This document shows positions 1 through 7,627 of a stretch of DNA of 7,627 nt, piece after piece. Position 1 is the stretch's first letter. Every line of letters begins with the position of its first letter. Both the position numbers and the translations under genes were made by a program. This DNA is from a virus (Duplodnaviria; Heunggongvirae; Uroviricota; Caudoviricetes). Location of the stretch: IMG/VR virus record IMGVR_UViG_2695420382_000010, positions 1 through 7,627 of that record; one strand, 5' to 3'. Under the pieces are notes generated by a model. That model was not told the origin of the DNA. It saw only the letters and a list, made by a program, of their open reading frames with translations, and ran no database searches.

Positions 1-225
1 CGCATACTTAAAAGCCCTGCTAATCGGACTGATGTCTGATGCCATTCCGAAAGCACACAAGACCGAAGCAATAAACCTCCAGTCCGTTCTGCTTATCTTC
101 GATTCATGACAGCCAATCATCTTTGCCAGACCGCGCTGGGTAAGCGTTGACAGGTTGATGAGTAAATCTGTTTCTGCGCGATCAACATCGCGCTGTGATA
201 GTTTGCTGTAACTTGTTTGTTCCAT
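1..225 (-). CDS. cII: CII-like transcriptional activator, partial (start codon at 225-223; the gene runs off the left edge of the window)
   Basis: Not in the ORF track because it is open at the window edge. Minus-strand translation from ATG (complement of 223-225) gives MEQTSYSKLSQRDVDRAETDLLINLSTLTQRGLAKMIGCHESKISRTDWRFIASVLCAFGM..., 75 codons with no stop. The pattern resembles lambda CII (helix-turn-helix with ...SQISRW..W...) and the gene sits downstream of cro, nutR and a tR1-like hairpin as in lambda. Confidence 0.6.
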   Translation of the reverse strand, partial: MEQTSYSKLSQRDVDRAETDLLINLSTLTQRGLAKMIGCHESKISRTDWRFIASVLCAFGMASDISPISRAFKYA

Positions 226-234
226 TTCTTACTA
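203..234 (+). promoter_or_regulatory. PRE-like CII-dependent promoter: TTGC-N6-TTGT direct repeat flanking the -35 position, then a 12-nt spacer and the -10-like TTACTA; it would drive antisense-to-cro transcription toward cI
   Basis: TTGC at 203-206, 6-nt spacer, TTGT at 213-216, then 12 nt and TTACTA at 229-234. The architecture matches lambda PRE (TTGC-N6-TTGC), and as in lambda it overlaps the cII start codon on the opposite strand. Confidence 0.4.
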
Positions 235-242
235 TTTCCATA

Positions 243-277
243 GGTAAATAATCACTAATACTCATCTTTCGATGAGT
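243..277 (-). terminator. tR1-like hairpin between nutR and cII (7-bp stem, GAAA loop, A/U-rich tail)
   Basis: Minus-strand RNA reads ACUCAUC-GAAA-GAUGAGU (plus 260-277) followed by AUUAGUGAUUAUUUACC. The position matches lambda tR1. The U-tract is imperfect, so this may be a partial or Rho-assisted terminator. Confidence 0.3.
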
Positions 278-289
278 GCTTAATTAGTT

Positions 290-324
290 ACCGCGTTGTC
301 GGCGGTGCAGATTGATAAAGAGCG
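290..324 (-). promoter_or_regulatory. nutR: boxA plus P22-type boxB hairpin
   Basis: On the minus strand, boxA is CGCTCTTTA (plus 316-324) and boxB is ACCGC-CGACAAC-GCGGT (plus 290-306; 5-bp stem, 7-nt loop). It lies immediately downstream of the cro stop, as lambdoid nutR does. The boxB matches the P22 nutR type as I recall it. Confidence 0.6.
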
Positions 325-334
325 GATCCGCTTA

Positions 335-550
335 TTAAGCGGCTTTGTGTTCAGGCGGGAACACGTCATCAAGACTGACTTTTGCGCCTAACTTGTTTAG
401 GCACGCAACAAGAGCACGGCATGTTTTAAGGTCTGGGAAGCGACGACCAGATTCCCAATGTCCGATAGCTCCCTGTGTGCATCCAACTGCCTTAGCAAGT
501 GTTGTTTGAGAGATATTCAGTGACTCTCGATATTTTCGTAGGTTGCTCAT
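335..550 (-). CDS. cro: Cro-like HTH repressor (71 aa)
   Basis: Track ORF 335..721, trimmed to the internal Met at 550 (MSNLRKYRESLNISQTTLAKAVGCTQGAIGHW...) because a GGAGGG Shine-Dalgarno sits 4 nt upstream and the longer form would run through the operator region and the cI start. It has an XRE-type helix-turn-helix and is divergent from cI across an operator region. Confidence 0.85.
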   Translation of the reverse strand: MSNLRKYRESLNISQTTLAKAVGCTQGAIGHWESGRRFPDLKTCRALVACLNKLGAKVSLDDVFPPEHKAA

Positions 551-661
551 ATGCCCTCCATAGTAACCATGAAACAATAATACGATATGTACTTTTGGAA
601 TGCAAACAAAAAATACATCTTGTGCATGGATGGTTTTAGTACAGAGCGTAATAATAAGGAT
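551..661. promoter_or_regulatory. OR-type divergent control region between cro and cI (operators, PR and presumably PRM)
   Basis: 110-bp AT-rich spacer between divergent cro and cI starts. It contains the 19-mer at 577-595 that is shared (17/19) with the PL region, and an ACAAGATG core at 614-625 that recurs in OL at 2918-2925. Confidence 0.6.
577..605 (-). promoter_or_regulatory. PR-like sigma70 promoter for cro (-35 TTGCAT, 17-bp spacer, -10 TATTAT)
   Basis: On the minus strand, TTGCAT is the complement of 600-605, the spacer is 17 bp, and TATTAT is the complement of 577-582. The predicted leader of about 20 nt carries GGAGGG before the cro ATG. Confidence 0.5.
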
Positions 662-1321
662 ATGAAAATGAAATGGTATGAACTGGCTAGATCCAGAATG
701 AAAGAGCTCGGCATAACTCAAGAGAAGTTAGCTGAAGAGCTTGGTATGACGCAGGGTGGAATTGGTCACTGGTTGCGCGGATCTCGTCATCCATCTCTTG
801 ACGAGATTGGTGTGGTGTTTAAATACCTTGGTATTGATAACGTCTCATTCAACCACGACGGTACATTCTCACCTGTTGGCGAATACTCATCTGCCCCCGT
901 TAAAAAACAATATGAGTACCCTGTTTTTTCTCATGTTCAGGCCGGGATGTTCTCGCCTGAGCTTAGAACCTTTACCAAAGGTGATGCGGAGAGATGGGTA
1001 AGCACAACCAAAAAAGCCAGTGATTCTGCATTCTGGCTTGAGGTTGAAGGTAATTCCATGACCGCGCCAACAGGATCCAAGCCCAGCTTTCCTGACGGAA
1101 TGTTAATTCTCGTTGACCCTGAGCAGGCTGTTGAGCCAGGTGATTTCTGCATAGCCAGACTTGGGGGTGATGAGTTTACCTTCAAGAAACTGATCAGGGA
1201 TAGCGGTCAGGTGTTTTTACAACCACTAAACCCACAGTACCCAATGATCCCATGCAATGAGAGTTGTTCCGTTGTGGGGAAAGTTATCGCTAGCCAGTGG
1301 CCTGAAGAGACGTTTGGGTGA
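662..1321 (+). CDS. cI: CI-type prophage repressor (N-terminal HTH domain plus C-terminal S24/LexA-like autocleavage-dimerisation domain), 219 aa
   Basis: Track ORF 587..1321, trimmed to Met 662 (MKMKWYEL...; Met 668 is an alternative) with AAGGA at 656-660. The C-terminal ~130 aa ([14 protein letters not shown]...[10 protein letters not shown]...[12 protein letters not shown]) match the lambda CI C-terminal domain as I recall it. The N-terminal domain is different and carries the helix-turn-helix [22 protein letters not shown]. Confidence 0.9.
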
Positions 1322-1452
1322 TGGATGGAAAAGTACGCCGGGCGTAGAGTGACCAGCAGATTTAAAGCCGACATTCATTGCATTCAATGCAAAAAGAAAC
1401 TTTATGCACTTTAACGATATAATGACTTACGCCATATATAACGGATTGATAT

Positions 1453-2283
1453 ATGAAACTTAATTTTTACGCCTCCTATCAACAAAACGGTAAGGAACGT
1501 TTTCCTATTGATTTGGTGTCAGGCTTATCCGAACAGGTAATCAAAGCAAAAAACAATGCCTTCGAGATTGATGATTACTTTATATTTGCTCATCACATTA
1601 GCAGAGAATGTTATTTAATAACAAAAACATATGACTCAGACTTGGTTAAAAGGGTCAATAAAACCACGCTCTCAGTCGATGAACTCAAAAACGTATTAGG
1701 CAGTGACGAAACGCTAGCGTTTCCATCATTCCTGTTGATCAAAGATGGCGTCATTGGTTATGCCTGCACTCAGCACGGGCCAAGAGTTCGTGAGCTTGAA
1801 ATTTACTTATCTAATAAATTGAACATAACAAAACCATTCAAGCTATGTTTAGAACCTCTGATGAGAGACGTAACTAGGGATGATGCTCTCGACATGGAGT
1901 TCATCGGTAGAACAACCTTAAGAGTTGAGTCTGGATCCAAGCTTTTGTCTCCTTTGCTGAGAGCTGCCGGGATCGAAACCATCGAAGAAGAGCTTCTTGA
2001 AGGTGTGGAAATAACAATAAAACCAAAAAGAATGAGAAATATCAGCAACATGTCCAAGGAGCTGATTCGTAATGCCGATGATTCTCATAGTGACATACAT
2101 CTTAAAGCGAAGGAGTACGCAGCTGATTTGCTAACTGACTACTACCTTTCAAGCAAGGGGCACATCAGTGCCAACATTTACAAATCGACAAATGAAGAAA
2201 TTGCAGAGGAAATGGAAATTTGCTACATAAGAATGAAAAATGTTATAATGAAAAGTTATAAAGATTTTTGTGAAGACGAGTAA
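1453..2283 (+). CDS. rexA: RexA homologue (abortive-infection/exclusion sensor component), 276 aa
   Basis: Same strand as cI and immediately downstream of it. Its length is close to lambda RexA (279 aa) and it shares blocks recalled from lambda RexA: FPSFL, EPLMR..T.DD, FIGRTT, I.IKPK, YLS.KGH.SA, EIAEEM. Confidence 0.85.
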   Translation: MKLNFYASYQQNGKERFPIDLVSGLSEQVIKAKNNAFEIDDYFIFAHHISRECYLITKTYDSDLVKRVNKTTLSVDELKNVLGSDETLAFPSFLLIKDGVIGYACTQHGPRVRELEIYLSNKLNITKPFKLCLEPLMRDVTRDDALDMEFIGRTTLRVESGSKLLSPLLRAAGIETIEEELLEGVEITIKPKRMRNISNMSKELIRNADDSHSDIHLKAKEYAADLLTDYYLSSKGHISANIYKSTNEEIAEEMEICYIRMKNVIMKSYKDFCEDE

Positions 2284-2313
2284 GAGTGAATACCTAAGGG
2301 TAAGGGAGGGCGT

Positions 2314-2751
2314 ATGAGAGAGCACAAAATCGTTCCCGGCGTATTGCTATTCGCTTTACCAATACTTTTCACTATTGTCGTTTACTGCATTTTCCGTAGC
2401 CTTACCTCAGCAATTTCGTTCACCGAGCACAGAGACGCGCTGGGAGCAGCTATATCTTCATATGCAGGGACCACTATCGCAATACTCATTGCCGCGTTGA
2501 CGTTTGTCATAGGCATCAGAGGAAAAAACATGCAAAAAGTAAAGGCATACGGATATATGACATCTGTCATTATTCTGTATGCACTGACCTTTGCGGAGCT
2601 TGGCATTGTTTTTTTTATGGGGTTATTTTTAATGGCCACAAGCAAGCAACCAATTGCTTTGTTGCCATCCTTATCGATCGGCCTATCAGCTTCATCAATG
2701 ATGCATATAAGCATCATACTTTTCCAACTCCTAAAATTCTCAAATAAATAA
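2314..2751 (+). CDS. rexB: RexB homologue (small polytopic inner-membrane protein partner of RexA), 145 aa
   Basis: GGGAGGG Shine-Dalgarno at 2303-2309. The protein is hydrophobic with about four predicted TM segments and shares blocks recalled from lambda RexB: MPGV, H/EHRD.LGA..SSYAGT.IAILIAALTF, YGYMTSV.I.YAL.F.ELG. It is followed directly by an intrinsic terminator. Confidence 0.85.
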   Translation: MREHKIVPGVLLFALPILFTIVVYCIFRSLTSAISFTEHRDALGAAISSYAGTTIAILIAALTFVIGIRGKNMQKVKAYGYMTSVIILYALTFAELGIVFFMGLFLMATSKQPIALLPSLSIGLSASSMMHISIILFQLLKFSNK

Positions 2752-2753
2752 CG

Positions 2754-2780
2754 ACCCGGCCTCAGCGCCGGGTTTTCTTT
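2754..2780 (+). terminator. tIMM-like Rho-independent terminator ending the cI-rexA-rexB operon
   Basis: GC-rich hairpin ACCCGGC (2754-2760), loop CTCAGC, GCCGGGT (2767-2773), followed by the T-tract TTTTCTTT, starting 3 nt after the rexB stop. Confidence 0.8.
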
Positions 2781-2960
2781 GCCTCTCGAACGCCCACCTA
2801 AAACACATAACAAATTGTATTTATTGAAAAATTGATAGATACAACTTGCTAAACAGTGCAATTCTGATCCCTCACCTACCAAACAATGCACCCCTGCAAA
2901 AAATAAATCCATAAAATACAAGATGGTATAAAAAACCAACAACATTTAGAACATTTTGTA

Positions 2961-2989
2961 TTGACTCAATAAAGTACACATCGTACTAT
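2961..2989 (+). promoter_or_regulatory. PL-like sigma70 promoter (-35 TTGACT, 17-bp spacer, -10 TACTAT) with an overlapping operator
   Basis: TTGACT at 2961-2966 and TACTAT at 2984-2989. The downstream CATCAGCAGGACGCA resembles the lambda PL transcript start. The segment 2971-2989 is 17/19 identical to the PR spacer and -10 segment, suggesting OL1. Confidence 0.55.
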
Positions 2990-3035
2990 TTAGCCATCAG
3001 CAGGACGCAGGAAGCCAAACGGAACAGATTGGCAG

Positions 3036-3069
3036 GCTCTTTAACTTCGATGGGGCGCTGACAAAGCGC
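3036..3069 (+). promoter_or_regulatory. nutL: boxA plus P22-type boxB hairpin
   Basis: boxA GCTCTTTAA at 3036-3044 and boxB GCGC-TGACAAA-GCGC at 3055-3069, lying between PL and the N start. The boxB matches the P22 nutL type as I recall it. Confidence 0.7.
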
Positions 3070-3188
3070 AAACAGATATCAAACGAGATGGGTTTGGCGG
3101 TGATGTGAATTGCAGCTGCAACGACAGCAACCAGAAGATCAGCACCTGGCGCATCACCACCAAAGCCATTTCACATGAGGAAAACATC

Positions 3189-3497
3189 ATGACGGTAATC
3201 GTGTACGGAAAATCAACATTTGCAGGAAATGCCAAAACTCGCCGTCATGAGCGGCGCAGAAAGCTGGCTATCGAGCGTGATGCCATCTGCAACATCATCG
3301 ATTCGATCTTCGGCACAGACAGCGAGGAACCTGTTCAGAAAGACACGAGAAAGCGTTTAAGCCTTTCTGAAAAAGCAATATCACTCGGAAGCCTTCGCTG
3401 CAAGAAGGCAGATGAATACAGTGGAAGTATTTGCCTGCCAAACATAGCCATTTACGCGGCAGGCTACAGGAAATCCAAACAGCTGACAGCAAGATGA
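3189..3497 (+). CDS. N: N-type transcription antiterminator, P22 gene 24-like, 102 aa (arginine-rich motif near the N terminus)
   Basis: Track ORF 3105..3497, trimmed to Met 3189 with GAGGA at 3176-3180. The start MTVIVYGKSTFAGNAKTRRHERRRKLAIERD contains the arginine-rich boxB-binding motif and matches the P22 gp24 N terminus as I recall it. It is the first gene after PL and nutL. Confidence 0.85.
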   Translation: MTVIVYGKSTFAGNAKTRRHERRRKLAIERDAICNIIDSIFGTDSEEPVQKDTRKRLSLSEKAISLGSLRCKKADEYSGSICLPNIAIYAAGYRKSKQLTAR

Positions 3498-3555
3498 CTT
3501 GTGTTGGTCGCCAGAAAATGAAATTAGACAGCAAACCACTTATTTGAGGTGAGAT

Positions 3556-4026
3556 ATGACAAAATCATGGAGCGTACCGTTTCCTGAATCAGAAACTGAA
3601 CATGATGGAATGCCTGTTTTCTGGAGATTCCAGGCGACAGTTGAAGAAGATGGGATAAAAATATTCGCACTTCAATATATAGCTTTTCATCAGACAGAGC
3701 ATTATGCATGGTTGGTTCCTGCGCATTGGATTGTTAATTTTAAACCAGCACCAAATCAGTGGTTACAGGAATGGAAACAAAGGAGAAATAGATATGCAAT
3801 TAAGAAAGTAGCAAAAAATGCAGAAAGATCTTTTGCATTCCCAACGAAGAAACTTGCTATTGAAAGTTTATTGCGTCGAAAAAAATACCATTTGGTGAGG
3901 ATCAAACAAGATTTGGCTGTCGTATCAACTCTTGTCGATGGGATGAAGAATATTGATACATCAACACCAGATATTGAATATAACTTTGGACACAACCAAG
4001 AAACAGAAAATTGGGTATTTTATTAG
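3556..4026 (+). CDS. Hypothetical protein, 156 aa; AT-rich orphan gene in the N-cIII slot
   Basis: Track ORF with GAGGTGA Shine-Dalgarno at about 3546-3552. GC content is about 30-37% against about 50-55% in cI and cIII. It has an aromatic-rich N-terminal half and a basic then acidic C-terminal half. I recognise no family. Confidence 0.7.
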   Translation: MTKSWSVPFPESETEHDGMPVFWRFQATVEEDGIKIFALQYIAFHQTEHYAWLVPAHWIVNFKPAPNQWLQEWKQRRNRYAIKKVAKNAERSFAFPTKKLAIESLLRRKKYHLVRIKQDLAVVSTLVDGMKNIDTSTPDIEYNFGHNQETENWVFY

Positions 4027-4101
4027 TACAAATAAGCACTGTGTATCCATTCCAACGAGTGAATACACGGAGCAATTTAAAGCGTAAATAAGGAGCACAC
4101 C

Positions 4102-4266
4102 ATGCAATATGCCATTGCAGGGTGGCCTGTTGCTGGCTGCCCTTCCGAATCTTTACTTGAACGAATCACCCGTAAATTACGTGACGGATGGAAACGCCTT
4201 ATCGACATACTTAATCAGCCAGGAGTCCCAAAGAATGGATCAAACACTTATGGCTATTCAGACTAA
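4102..4266 (+). CDS. cIII: CIII (inhibitor of FtsH-mediated CII degradation), 54 aa
   Basis: Not in the track because it is under 60 aa. ATG at 4102 with AGGAG at 4091-4095. It translates to MQYAIAGWPVAGCPSESLLERITRKLRDGWKRLIDILNQPGVPKNGSNTYGYSD, which matches lambda CIII as I recall it. Confidence 0.8.
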   Translation: MQYAIAGWPVAGCPSESLLERITRKLRDGWKRLIDILNQPGVPKNGSNTYGYSD

Positions 4267-4348
4267 ATTCACTATCGCCACTTTTATTGGCGATGAAAAG
4301 ATGTTTCGTGAGGCCGTCGAAGCCTACAGAAAATGGAGGTCAAAATGA
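4235..4348 (+). CDS. kil: Kil-like small protein (host cell-division inhibitor family), 37 aa
   Basis: This is the C-terminal part of track ORF 4109..4348, with Met at 4235 (MDQTLMAIQTKFTIATFIGDEKMFREAVEAYRKWRSK) preceded by AGGAG at 4221-4225. It overlaps the cIII 3' end out of frame. The N terminus matches lambda Kil as I recall it. Confidence 0.6.
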   Translation: MDQTLMAIQTKFTIATFIGDEKMFREAVEAYRKWRSK

Positions 4349-4533
4349 TTCCGGTAGAGCTGGCGAAAACTCCAGAGTTAAGTCGATTAAAAAGAGAATA
4401 TCACATTGCTGAGGCTCGTTACTGGCGTAAAGCGGGAGATAAATCAAAGAAACAACTTTGTTTATGGCAGGCACAAAGAGAGCGCATGAATGAGCGCGAG
4501 TTTCTTTCCGTCCCATCCGAATTACCATTCTGA
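4345..4533 (+). CDS. Hypothetical small basic protein, 62 aa
   Basis: Track ORF 4333..4533, trimmed to Met 4345 with GGAGG at 4335-4339. Its ATG overlaps the kil stop (ATGA), which suggests translational coupling. The protein is Arg/Lys-rich: MIPVELAKTPELSRLKREYHIAEARYWRK... Confidence 0.5.
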   Translation: MIPVELAKTPELSRLKREYHIAEARYWRKAGDKSKKQLCLWQAQRERMNEREFLSVPSELPF

Positions 4534-4541
4534 GGCAAATT

Positions 4542-5198
4542 ATGGGAACTGCGACATTAATACTCGGTGAATCTGGTACCGGAAAATCAACCAGTTTAAG
4601 AAACTTACCACCAGAAAAAACATTAATCATACAGTGCATAAACAAACCGCTACCATTCCCATCAAGTGATTGGGTTAAAATAAGCAAGGAAAACAATAAC
4701 GGGAACATATACAGAACAGATAATACTGAAAATATTGTAAGGGCACTAATTAATGCTCCGCATGAAATTGTAGTTATTGATGATTATCAGGCTGTGATGG
4801 TTAACGAACTAATGGGTAAATGCAATGAGAGAGGATATGACAAATTTACCTCGATAGGGAAAAACGCATGGGATGTGTTCAGGGCTGCTGGTGAAGGGGC
4901 AGACACTCGGAGAGTTTATATTCTGGCACACACGCAAACTGATGATTTTGGCTATACACGAATGAAAACCGTCGGAAAACTAGTCGATTCGACACTTGTT
5001 CCTGAAGGTTATTTCACTATCGTGTTAAGAACTCACGTACAGAACGGAAAATACTCATTTTCCACCCAGACAAACGGGAGTGATTGTTGTAAAAGTCCGG
5101 TTGGGATGTTTGATAGTCAGTTTATTGATAATGATTTGTACGAAGTAGATAAAAAAATATGCTCTTACTATGGGTTTGAAAAAAATGAGACGTCTTGA
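4542..5198 (+). CDS. P-loop NTPase, RecA-core-like; putative Sak4-type phage recombination ATPase, 218 aa
   Basis: Walker A GESGTGKST at residues 9-17 and a Walker B-like IVVIDD near residue 77. The size and position, where lambdoid phages carry their recombination module, fit Sak4-family single-strand-annealing ATPases. The family assignment is inferred, not confirmed. Confidence 0.7.
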   Translation: MGTATLILGESGTGKSTSLRNLPPEKTLIIQCINKPLPFPSSDWVKISKENNNGNIYRTDNTENIVRALINAPHEIVVIDDYQAVMVNELMGKCNERGYDKFTSIGKNAWDVFRAAGEGADTRRVYILAHTQTDDFGYTRMKTVGKLVDSTLVPEGYFTIVLRTHVQNGKYSFSTQTNGSDCCKSPVGMFDSQFIDNDLYEVDKKICSYYGFEKNETS

Positions 5199-5790
5199 GG
5201 TATCCGGCGAGAGATTTGGCAATTTAGTTGTTATTGGTGATGCAGGAATGCGTGGTACTCAAAGGTTGGTAAACTGTGTGTGTGACTGCGGAGTAGTTTG
5301 TGTTAAACAGCTTGGCAACCTCCGTTCAGGGCACACAAGAAGTTGTGGTTGCTCACGCTCATCTACAACAAAAGCAAGAAAAAACAAACATGGCATGTAT
5401 GGAACGCCAACATACAAGTCATGGTCTTCAATGTTAACAAGATGCTTCAATGAAAGAAATAGTAAATACAAACACTATGGAGGAAGAGGAATAACTGTTT
5501 GTGAACGGTGGCTGGACTTTAAATTATTTTTCGCTGATATGGGAAAAAGACCAGACGGAACTACATTGGGAAGAATTGATAACAATGGTAATTACGAACC
5601 ATCAAATTGCGAATGGCAGAAAAGTATCGAGCAAGCAAGAAATAAGAGTAATACCGTATTATTTAAATTCAATGGAGTGCTGGCAACAATTTCAGAGCAC
5701 TGCGAAAAAACTGGATTAAACCCAAGCACGGTAAGAAGCAGGATTTACACATATCATTGGTCTGTAGACAAGGCCTTATCAAAAGGATAA
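5185..5790 (+). CDS. Cys-rich putative nucleic-acid-binding / homing-endonuclease-like protein, about 201 aa (start ambiguous: 5170 or 5185)
   Basis: Track ORF 5170..5790. It overlaps the end of the upstream ATPase gene. It has an N-terminal Cys cluster (NCVCDCG...SGHTRSCGC), a central YKSW..M..RC.N....Y..YGGRGI.VCERW block and a GRIDNNGNYEPSNCEW block, which I recall from free-standing phage endonuclease-like genes, and a C-terminal HTH-like segment. Confidence 0.65.
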   Translation: MRRLEVSGERFGNLVVIGDAGMRGTQRLVNCVCDCGVVCVKQLGNLRSGHTRSCGCSRSSTTKARKNKHGMYGTPTYKSWSSMLTRCFNERNSKYKHYGGRGITVCERWLDFKLFFADMGKRPDGTTLGRIDNNGNYEPSNCEWQKSIEQARNKSNTVLFKFNGVLATISEHCEKTGLNPSTVRSRIYTYHWSVDKALSKG

Positions 5791-5794
5791 AAGC

Positions 5795-6382
5795 ATGAGC
5801 AACGTGATTTTTACTTATAACGAAGAAGCAGCACTGACCGCAGGGCAAGGTGGTTTTATTAACGAAACTGGCGCTCATATCATTACCATTACTGAAGCAG
5901 AACTAAAGCAATCAGAGAAAGGAGCCAAATTTATTGAGTTTTCTGGAGAATCCGACGACGGACGTAAAATCCAATATCTTAGCGTTTGTGTTCAGAAAAA
6001 TGACGGAACGGAAAACAAGTTTGGTGCAAACGTCGTTCATGCCATGATGGGGTGTGTTGGGATTAAGCAGTTAACGCAACATATGGTTTCCGCCAGTAAA
6101 TTTGTTGCTCCTGAATTTCATGGAAAGAAAATCGGGTTAGTGCTCCAGAAAGTATTAACCACAAACAAAAAGACTGGCGCAGACAGCTACCAGATGGAAA
6201 TACGCATCCCGTTTATTGCACAAACAGGTCAAACCCTTAAAGAAAAGTCGGAAGGCAAGCAACCAGAAACTATCGCCAACATGGTTGCCAGCCTCAAAGA
6301 TAAAGACAATCGCTCTAAAAACGTAAGCCAGAATCATGCAGATGATTATGGTTACAGCCAGAACGATTACCCTCCTTTCTGA
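5795..6382 (+). CDS. Hypothetical protein with an SSB-like acidic/aromatic C-terminal tail (candidate ssDNA-binding partner of the ATPase), 195 aa
   Basis: AAGGA Shine-Dalgarno about 9 nt upstream. The C terminus ...DDYGYSQNDYPPF resembles the SSB / gp2.5 tail (D-rich, ending in P-F). The body has no recognisable canonical SSB OB-fold signature, so the function is a hypothesis. Confidence 0.6.
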   Translation: MSNVIFTYNEEAALTAGQGGFINETGAHIITITEAELKQSEKGAKFIEFSGESDDGRKIQYLSVCVQKNDGTENKFGANVVHAMMGCVGIKQLTQHMVSASKFVAPEFHGKKIGLVLQKVLTTNKKTGADSYQMEIRIPFIAQTGQTLKEKSEGKQPETIANMVASLKDKDNRSKNVSQNHADDYGYSQNDYPPF

Positions 6383-6405
6383 TTACTGAAAATAAGGCTC
6401 CCATT

Positions 6406-6702
6406 ATGCCAGCGCCTCTGTATGGTGCGGATGACCCGCGCAACTGCTCCGGTAGCTCCAAGGCGGAGGTGCTGGATAAATTCAGGAAAAACTACGACCG
6501 GATAATGTCGCTACCGCAGGAAACGAAAGAGGAAAAGGAATTTCGCCATTGTATATGGCTTGCAGAGAAAGAAGAACGCGAGCGAATTTACCAGACATCA
6601 ATCCGACCATTCCGCAAAGCCACATATACCCACTTCCCTGAATATATCGACCCGCGCCTGCGTAATTACCGCTCACGCTATGGCGCTATCAGTAATGACT
6701 GA
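6406..6702 (+). CDS. Hypothetical protein, 98 aa
   Basis: Track ORF with AAGG about 9 nt upstream, co-directional with the operon. The protein is charged and Arg-rich. Its size and position are compatible with a P22 Abc-type anti-RecBCD protein, but the sequence is not recognised. Confidence 0.55.
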   Translation: MPAPLYGADDPRNCSGSSKAEVLDKFRKNYDRIMSLPQETKEEKEFRHCIWLAEKEERERIYQTSIRPFRKATYTHFPEYIDPRLRNYRSRYGAISND

Positions 6703-6712
6703 GGAATTAACA

Positions 6713-7003
6713 ATGAAAACAATGAAGCTAAACATCGACCTCGGCAAATACGTTATTACCGGAACCAAACACGACCTGATTCTTAGCGAAAGAGGAATTA
6801 TCAAAGAAGGTGAGAATGCAGGGAAAGAAACACTAAGTCGTATCGGTTATTACAGCAAGTTTGAGCATCTGGTTAAAGAGTTATGCAACCGTGAAATCCT
6901 GTTATCTCAGGCGCAGACGCTACAGGATATTCAGCAGCATATCGAAACTTTAGGTGTGTCACTTAGCATGGCCGTTGACCAGTTCGTTGAGAGTAAATCA
7001 TGA
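6713..7003 (+). CDS. Hypothetical protein, 96 aa
   Basis: Trimmed from track ORF 6560..7003 to Met 6713, with GAGGA at 6701-6705 straight after the upstream stop. Sequence [22 protein letters not shown]... Confidence 0.55.
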
Positions 7004-7167
7004 GAGGACTTGCATACAATCCCGGCATTCTTCCGGCAGAAATGATTATTCGCCAGCGCGTAAAGCCAATGCCATCGAGAGAGGAATTGCTTAAGAGAAA
7101 GAGTTTCGGTTCTGTTAATGACAACAAATATCTGAATGCGATGTGGCGCAAAGGAGGCAACCAGTGA
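7000..7167 (+). CDS. Hypothetical small protein, 55 aa
   Basis: Not in the track because it is under 60 aa. Its ATG overlaps the upstream stop (ATGA) and its stop overlaps the downstream GTG start (GTGA). It translates to [55 protein letters not shown]. Support is positional only. Confidence 0.35.
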
Positions 7168-7627
7168 GCAAGATTGACTATCAGGCACTGCGTGCCAAGG
7201 CAGAAAAAGCAACTAAAGGAAGCTACATCGTAGGGCATACATCTGTTAATCGGCACGGCAATTTAACAGGAGTTTTTGTTTGTCAAAAATGGAAAGGAGA
7301 ACCCGGTGGTGTGATTGCGGAATGTCATGTTAACTGCCTGGTTGAAACAGATGTTCAGGCTTATGCAAACGCTGAATTTATTGCTGCTTTTAATCCAAAT
7401 GTTGCGCTGGCACTACTGGATGAACGGGAAAGAAACCTGCAATACATCAAAAGCCGCGATCAGGAGAACGAGGAAATTGCGCTAACGGTAGGGAAGTTGC
7501 GTGTTGAGCTGGAAGCAGCAGAGAACAACCTTATTGATAGTGAATGCCATGTTGCTGAACTGGAAGAAGCGCTACGCGATAAGCAGGCGTTACTTGAAGC
7601 CTCAGAAAAGCGCATAGCAGAACTGGA
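7164..7627 (+). CDS. Coiled-coil protein, possibly Ea22-like, 3' partial (GTG start; open to the end of the window)
   Basis: Strong AAGGAGG Shine-Dalgarno at 7151-7157, 6 nt before GTG 7164. The frame stays open for 154 codons to the window end. The C-terminal part visible is heptad-like and rich in Glu/Leu/Ala (...[43 protein letters not shown]). The N terminus [19 protein letters not shown] resembles Ea22-like prophage proteins as I recall them. Confidence 0.5.

Follow-up and report, generated by a model that had tools for sequence, protein, structure and literature searches.

We analysed a 7,627-nucleotide (nt) stretch of DNA (positions 1 to 7,627 of the IMG/VR virus record IMGVR_UViG_2695420382_000010, hereafter the window), which spans the immunity and early-left genes of a lambdoid prophage whose pL transcript runs on the + strand, and focused on the open reading frame (ORF) between the N antiterminator gene and cIII (Table 1). 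The ORF starts 58 nt past the N stop codon and ends 75 nt ahead of cIII. The original prediction of a 156-amino-acid (aa) frame directly after N with a good Shine-Dalgarno sequence was borne out, as the ORF, its GAGG element and its position between N and cIII were all found. The probability of 156 stop-free codons arising by chance at the ORF's own composition was 3.4e-6, and a frame of this length appeared in 5 of 2000 shuffles of the local 1 kb. Compared with the copies in phages HK97 and 933W, the ORF showed 10-11 synonymous and 1-2 non-synonymous differences, with a ratio of non-synonymous to synonymous substitution rates (dN/dS) of 0.02-0.08, indicating a real gene under strong constraint. 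Its GC content of 36.3% (28% at third codon positions) is lower than that of any other gene in the window and fits the AT-richness described earlier, but the contrast had been overstated, as cI (47.1%) and cIII (45.5%) were below the 50-55% proposed for them; N was at 47.9% and the whole window at 42.3%, while the rexA-like gene (38.3%) and the gene for a 218-aa ATPase (38.4%) were nearly as AT-rich as the ORF. A weak promoter-like site, TACACA-17-TAAAAT (9/12 matches), was located at 4017-4045 on the - strand, directed antisense into the 3' end of the ORF, and is probably a chance occurrence because the region contained three such sites against 4.0 expected in shuffles.

The ORF protein matched phrog_1636 over its entire length (E 1.8e-111; residues 1-156 aligned to positions 1-156 of the 156-position profile), and was 98.7-99.4% identical over 156 residues to HK97 gp45, 933W L0079 (ST933Wp19) and Phi24B vb_24B_11c. 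An equivalent ORF was also present in H-19B, BP-4795, Min27 and many Shiga toxin (Stx) phages of both the Stx1 and Stx2 types. In total, the gene was detected in 83 sequenced phage records and in 598 of 5426 complete Escherichia coli genomes (approximately 11%), indicating that the ORF is not an orphan; this earlier designation is also at odds with the phrog_1636 match and with the wider family described below. The ORF is almost certainly the same gene as HK97 gp45, 933W L0079 and phrog_1636. The copies in HK97, 933W and Phi24B occupy the same post-N position within the same flanking module, and the window copy differs from those of HK97 and 933W by one private substitution (M113V) and approximately 3-4% synonymous divergence. 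The window ORF is thus an ordinary copy of a conserved hypothetical gene that has long been annotated, and nothing in the window sets it apart from the many known copies. Unlike the HK97 and 933W loci, the window carries a P22-like allele of N upstream, and neither an ea10/ssb gene nor an HK97-type terminator lies between the ORF and cIII. All PHROGs matching the ORF protein are of unknown function, and its database names are without exception 'hypothetical' or 'prophage protein'. Searches of Pfam and NCBIfam with the ORF protein gave no match, and the defence hidden Markov models of PADLOC-DB 2.0 gave only a spurious hit to Cas1_II (E 0.015, 12.6 bits).

Table 1. Features of the window, including the regions of the ORF protein
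Feature	Position	Strand	Remarks
cro-like gene		-	First of the listed features
cI			Between the cro-like gene and RexA; helix-turn-helix + Peptidase_S24
RexA	1453-2283		276 aa; divergent; Pfam RexA, E 1.4e-45
RexB	2314-2751		145 aa; divergent; E 8.3e-39
Intrinsic terminator after the rexB-like gene	2753-2774	+	Fold of -15 kcal/mol, then U-tract
pL-like promoter	2961-2989	+	TTGACT-17-TACTAT; no other promoter-like site precedes N and the ORF on this strand
N antiterminator	3189-3497	+	P22-gp24-like allele; Pfam N_peptide, E 4.5e-41
Mosaic module	3432-4076	+	645 bp; 96% identity to HK97 and 933W (local blastn)
Shine-Dalgarno sequence	3546-3552	+	GAGGTGA; GAGG 6 nt before the ATG of the ORF; read from the sequence
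ORF	3556-4026	+	156 aa; ATG start; coordinates include the stop codon
ORF codons 1-18	3556-3609	+	Acidic N-terminal extension (SWSVPFPESE...); alignments
ORF codons 19-55	3610-3720	+	Three-stranded beta domain; strands 19-30, 33-46, 50-55
ORF codons 62-131	3739-3948	+	Strongly basic region; isoelectric point (pI) 10.9; 18 K/R against 5 D/E
ORF codons 132-156	3949-4023	+	Acidic C-terminal tail; no K/R; ends NWVFY; pI 4.05
RNA hairpin	4036-4073	+	Right-hand cassette junction, directly after the ORF stop; conserved; no U-tract
cIII thermoregulator RNA	4089-4147	+	Rfam RF01804; 88.5 bits; E 3.6e-21
cIII	4102-4266	+	Right-hand neighbour of the ORF
kil, then a 66-aa ORF			After cIII, before the ATPase
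AAA_24 (Sak4-like) ATPase	4542-5198		Pfam
ORF without Pfam match	5170-5790		
ORF without Pfam match	5795-6382		
Abc2	6406-6702		Anti-RecBCD

The N gene is itself mosaic. Residues 1-80 of the N protein are similar to P22 gp24 (67% identity to P22, and 93% over the full length to the N of Lambda_ev203), and only its last 22 residues (81-102) match the N of the 933W/HK97 type, indicating a recombination junction inside the C-terminal region of N. The 645-bp module begins with the final 22 codons of N, runs through the spacer and the ORF, and extends 50 bp beyond the latter. Because the remaining part of N belongs to another, P22-gp24-like allele, the ORF is not bound to a particular N specificity. 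The P22 region spanning pL, nutL and gene 24 aligned with the pL region of the window at 74%. At the right-hand end of the module, the hairpin following the ORF had a folding energy of -17.2 kcal/mol (z -4.2), and none of 200 shuffles was as stable. The 41 bp that contain it (4036-4076) are present in HK97 and 933W, and also in lambda just downstream of ral (97.6%). The hairpin may be a cassette junction or an RNA processing or stability element, and it may also be one of the tL2-cluster sites of lambda. With respect to the remainder of the window, the presence of RexA and RexB homologues after cI indicates that the prophage already has a Rex-type abortive-infection pair. To the right of cIII, the AAA_24 ATPase, the two ORFs and Abc2 (4542-6702) replace the usual Gam-Bet-Exo or Erf recombination module, and the names given by PGAP to such ORFs in similar genomes include Nmad5 and DUF669.

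We compared the genes found between N and cIII in related phages. This interval contains sieB (antisense), orf28, ral and ea10 in lambda; sieB/esc (antisense, with its own promoter), ral, orf78, orf87 and gene 17 in P22; gp45 followed by ea10 in 933W and Phi24B; gp45 followed by a terminator in HK97; and gp45 only in the window. The presence of gp45 and that of sieB/ral were mutually exclusive in all seven lambdoid loci examined. Lambda_ev203, which has the same N allele as the window, carries sieB and ea10 at this place, and HK140, with a related N (84% over the last 43 residues), carries sieB and ral. These alternatives agree with the earlier view that the ORF lies in the slot of the ral and sieB genes of lambda and P22, where it behaves as an exchangeable cassette. 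A functional link of the ORF to a specific N allele was considered and rejected, since the same or related N alleles are followed by sieB and ea10 or by sieB and ral. Except for N, all genes of the lambda pL operon are non-essential or dispensable for plaque formation (PMC10695390), which fits an accessory role for the occupant of this slot.

Like the ORF, ral of lambda and P22 is a small, dispensable accessory gene in the same slot and co-directional with pL, and the same 41 bp follow ral in lambda and the ORF in the window. However, Ral is 66 aa long against 156 aa for the ORF protein, the two are unrelated in sequence (hhalign probability 0.1%), and no Pfam or PHROG Ral match was obtained with the ORF protein. 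The sieB gene of lambda and P22 is the alternative occupant of exactly the position of the ORF after the same N allele, but it lies on the opposite strand, has its own promoter and is expressed from the prophage, whereas the ORF is on the pL strand and the consensus scan assigned no promoter-like site to it. A tblastn search with lambda and P22 SieB detected no homologue in the window or in the other ORF-bearing loci examined. P22 gene 17, a counter-defence gene that allows growth on Fels-2 lysogens, and ea10 are also accessory genes of the pL operon in this slot, but their products showed no detectable similarity to the ORF protein (hhalign probability 2% for gp17 and 0.1% for Ea10).

Concerning expression of the ORF, no terminator-like fold was found in the spacer between N and the ORF (3490-3560; z +0.5), and a consensus-based scan of the + strand from pL to the ORF yielded no promoter-like site. 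The strong intrinsic terminator following the rexB-like gene (tIMM) ends the cI-rexA-rexB transcript of the prophage upstream of pL, and the ORF is co-directional with pL, as are ral and gene 17, unlike sieB. The simplest reading of these features is co-transcription of the ORF with N from pL. On these sequence signals, the ORF is very probably an immediate-early gene of pL and should be silent in the cI-repressed lysogen. Early expression together with N had been anticipated in the original prediction and is consistent with the lack of a promoter or terminator-like structure between the two genes, whereas the accompanying suggestion that the ORF may be read from the prophage is unlikely, given the terminator and the lack of a promoter-like site after pL. 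The gene was not mentioned in a Phi24B lysogen-expression study (not exhaustive).

The ORF protein consists of four regions. The N-terminal extension is conserved only in the enterobacterial subfamily and is absent from most of the family (column occupancy of 0.14-0.47 for residues 1-15). The beta domain contains the family-conserved residues W23/R24, G33, Y41, Q/E46, T47 and W52. The basic region is composed of a helix (66-74), a predicted hairpin (strand 83-86 and RSFAF at approximately 91-95) and a long amphipathic helix (98-130), and is followed by the acidic tail. The aromatic-rich N-terminal half and the Lys/Arg-rich part described earlier were thus both recognizable, the latter corresponding to the central residues 62-131. 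The AlphaFold model obtained with an alignment of 38 sequences including divergent members reached a predicted local distance difference test (pLDDT) score of 90.5 and a predicted template modelling score of 0.78; it superseded an unusable model from 18 close sequences (pLDDT 49). In the 38-sequence model, the three strands of the beta domain are followed by short helices at 56-61 and 66-74, the short strand at 83-86, the 33-residue helix at 98-130 and an extended tail. No membrane segment was found in the protein, which is a stand-alone cytoplasmic protein of approximately 18.6 kDa.

Searches of the PDB by sequence and by the fold of the model gave no significant match, and this included solved anti-defence proteins, toxins, nucleases and DNA-binding folds. 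The fold search on an AlphaFold model that had been suggested earlier yielded a confident model with no solved relative, and the earlier statement that no family or catalytic motif could be recognized held for Pfam, NCBIfam, PADLOC and the PDB alike. In contrast, 12 fold matches at E<=1e-3 were detected among predicted viral structures, all of them uncharacterized and from phages of Erwinia, Achromobacter, Delftia, Rhizobium, Sinorhizobium, Tenacibaculum and Cellulophaga, indicating that the fold is widespread in phages and has no solved or characterized representative. Approximately 43 residues of the beta domain could be superposed on Tudor/KOW/SH3-like small barrels such as PipX, the C-terminal Tudor domain of UvrD/PcrA and the KOW domain of NusG, with a root mean square deviation of 1.9-2.9 Å; in PipX, helices follow the barrel, as they follow the beta domain of the ORF model.

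The wider family was identified by two types of search. A word-indexed homology search recovered only Enterobacterales proteins of at least 57% identity (Pectobacterium, Brenneria, Rosenbergiella and Symbiopectobacterium), while an exhaustive profile search returned 76 cluster representatives at E<=1e-3, including a small number of false positives caused by repeats. Most of these representatives are 130-160 aa long with approximately 20-25% identity, and relatives were present in Vibrio, Pseudomonas and marine phages. All members of this wider family belong to the unannotated PHROGs 1636, 13631 and 25384 and have no Pfam domain. Two apparent domain fusions, P0044 (940 aa) and P0078 (444 aa), were rejected as false positives caused by DUF7507 repeats or tandem-repeat low-complexity sequence. 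No Pfam domain matched the N-terminal extension of P0047, which has the look of a wrongly called start codon.

Conservation was evaluated across 66 family members, except for R91, which was invariant in the 38-sequence alignment. Only G33, E46, T47, K87, A101 and K109 were conserved in at least 85% of the members. The recurrent features of the family are the aromatic-basic pair W23/R24, G33 in an E-D-G turn, (Q/E)46-T47, A94-F95 and A101, and the conserved basic positions are, besides R91, R76, K83, K84, K87 and K109. The motifs of phrog_1636 (aromatic-basic pair, EDG turn, H-(Q/E)-T, K-x-x-x-R-x-x-A-F, A101, K109 and a C-terminal aromatic residue) were all present in the window protein. Residues 74-118 had a median net charge of +11 (range +5 to +15) and the C-terminal tail one of -3. 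The position of F155 was aromatic in 95% of the members and was usually followed by an acidic residue, with 22 of the 66 proteins ending in FD and seven in FE. No conserved set of catalytic-type residues was seen among the 66 members. A 2H-phosphoesterase, suggested by the H-x-T motif, was rejected because the protein has just a single H-x-T and its histidine, H45, is not conserved, several members having R, K, G, S, Y or A in its place. Similarly, a zinc site of the form H-x3-C-x-H-x-C was rejected as a feature of the family, as it is confined to a marine subgroup. In this gammaproteobacterial subgroup (e.g. P0101-P0117), H-E-T-P-C-F-H-F-C is near-invariant and may form a metal site; neither the enterobacterial subgroup (FHQTEHYAWLV) nor the other subgroups have this motif.

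Outside the E. coli lambdoids, the genomic context of the family varied. Clustering of the neighbours in 16 loci (the window, 3 close lambdoid loci and 12 more distant loci) revealed no neighbour family conserved across them. In prophages of Brenneria alni and Pectobacterium betavasculorum (L023 and L024; 4001-4477), homologues of 62-63% identity are located directly upstream of xis-int at the prophage end rather than beside an antiterminator, and in marine prophages the homologue lies within long early-left operons ending in integrase. In Salmonella phage NX263 (L009, 4001-4477; 63% identity) and in contig L006 (2919-3365), the homologue is on the opposite strand amid virion structural genes, and that of NX263 heads a short divergent unit with a DNA-binding protein, a MarR-like regulator and a beta-clamp-like gene. 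Overall, the neighbourhoods contained recombination genes, DNA methyltransferases, one Lar restriction-alleviation gene, regulators and integrases. Genes for C5 and N6/N4 methyltransferases recurred within a few genes of family members (L003, L004, Medea1 (L017), Touem01 (L018) and two of L010-L016). The methyltransferase and Lar neighbours could represent an anti-restriction neighbourhood or just the typical content of an early operon.

Taking these observations together, the best overall explanation, which we hold tentatively and at less than even confidence, is that the ORF is an early gene on an exchangeable cassette, encoding a binding protein with an accessory role in early lytic growth. 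The protein would be made immediately after infection or induction on the pL transcript of N, with no need for antitermination. The partner contacted by the conserved basic hairpin-helix surface would be either nucleic acid or an acidic face of a host or defence protein that is widely conserved; the tail, acidic and with an aromatic end, may fold back onto the basic surface and regulate it. Sequence or fold relatives occur in phages of Vibrio, Pseudomonas, Rhizobium, Achromobacter, Delftia, Erwinia, Tenacibaculum and Cellulophaga, and this spread speaks for a target that is conserved broadly. From the conservation pattern, the chances that the protein acts as a non-enzymatic binder appear evenly balanced. 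The accessory role might consist of counter-defence or host modulation, in logic like that of its slot-mates ral and P22 gene 17; on this analogy such a role is conceivable, but we consider it somewhat less probable than its absence. An anti-restriction or anti-defence role is possible.

Several points weigh against this explanation. Nucleic-acid binding is inferred only from charge and conservation. The very low dN/dS is not the usual signature of an arms-race gene. The post-N position is not a family-wide property, because the contexts in Brenneria, Pectobacterium, NX263 and L006 differ, and guilt by association is weak, because any early-left gene of a temperate phage has neighbours of the kind described above. 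Consensus-based scans for promoters and terminators can miss real signals, including Rho-dependent termination. Finally, literature searches under the identifiers of the gene and for the N-cIII slot retrieved no paper on the gene.

The alternative that survives best, although we regard it as unlikely, is an accessory function in DNA metabolism (recombination, replication or DNA protection), in which the basic region and a tail like that of single-stranded DNA-binding protein (SSB) would bind single- or double-stranded DNA or dock onto SSB or recombinases. The conserved charge of the basic region (+11) and the acidic tail usually ending in F-D or F-E are in line with this function, since the C-terminal tips of bacterial SSB and T7 gp2.5 resemble such a tail, and Ea10/ssb, Gam-Bet-Exo, Erf, Rad52, RdgC, YqaJ, RecE, SSB and exonucleases are found among the neighbours. 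However, no single recombination gene is a conserved neighbour, the protein shows no similarity to any solved DNA-binding fold, and the ORF is interchangeable with sieB and ral, which are not DNA-metabolism genes. A host-toxic, kil-like takeover protein for the early shutdown of division, replication or translation is more doubtful still. Such a protein would suit an immediate-early gene that shares the pL operon with kil and cIII, and also the small size and basic character of the product and its wide distribution in phages, but the gene is stably carried by 11% of E. coli genomes, though repression by cI would allow that.

We then considered whether the ORF is a superinfection-exclusion or abortive-infection gene, expressed from the prophage and blocking incoming phages as SieB does. 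The ORF replaces the sieB-containing cassette at the same position and is AT-rich relative to its neighbours, like many morons, and the isolated placement of the NX263 and L006 homologues on the strand opposite to the structural genes is moron-like. These features are outweighed by several others, and we judge exclusion to be improbable. The stretch from pL to the ORF contains no promoter-like site, and the cI-rex transcript stops ahead of it at a strong terminator; the ORF is oriented as pL, in contrast to the antisense sieB with its own promoter; and the ORF protein has no membrane segment, whereas SieB is a membrane protein. In addition, the protein has no PADLOC match, the prophage already has RexA and RexB, no effector-like catalytic residues are conserved, and fold relatives occur in apparently virulent phages (N4-like and Vi1-like). 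The exclusion or defence role put forward in the original prediction is thus its weaker half, considering the lack of a membrane segment and the very different genome contexts of the relatives. The least probable of the alternatives is an accessory role in transcription or antitermination, with a putative Tudor/KOW-like barrel at the N-terminus that would have RNA polymerase or a Nus factor as its partner and would travel with the RNA polymerase-contacting C-terminus of N.

Returning to the early accessory gene favoured above, its strongest form is that the HK97 gp45 family represents a structurally unprecedented class of immediate-early counter-defence or host-takeover proteins, which would bind a widespread bacterial target stoichiometrically via the basic hairpin-helix; in lambdoid phages, the swap with sieB-ral would then make the post-N spot a two-way hotspot of defence and counter-defence. 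We consider this form speculative and rather unlikely as a whole. Carriers of the gene include the Stx1 and Stx2 phages of clinical importance (933W, Phi24B and Sp-type), HK97 and approximately one in nine complete E. coli genomes, and it has remained 'hypothetical' since those genomes were first annotated. A confident model without a solved relative, the cassette boundaries, a prediction of expression and named alternative cassettes are now in hand, and these alternatives, sieB and ral, suggest phenotypes. If the product is not a counter-defence or takeover factor, the gene would be an ordinary accessory gene; if it is, both the fold and the family would be new, and some of the modular variation seen in the lambdoid early-left operon would be accounted for.
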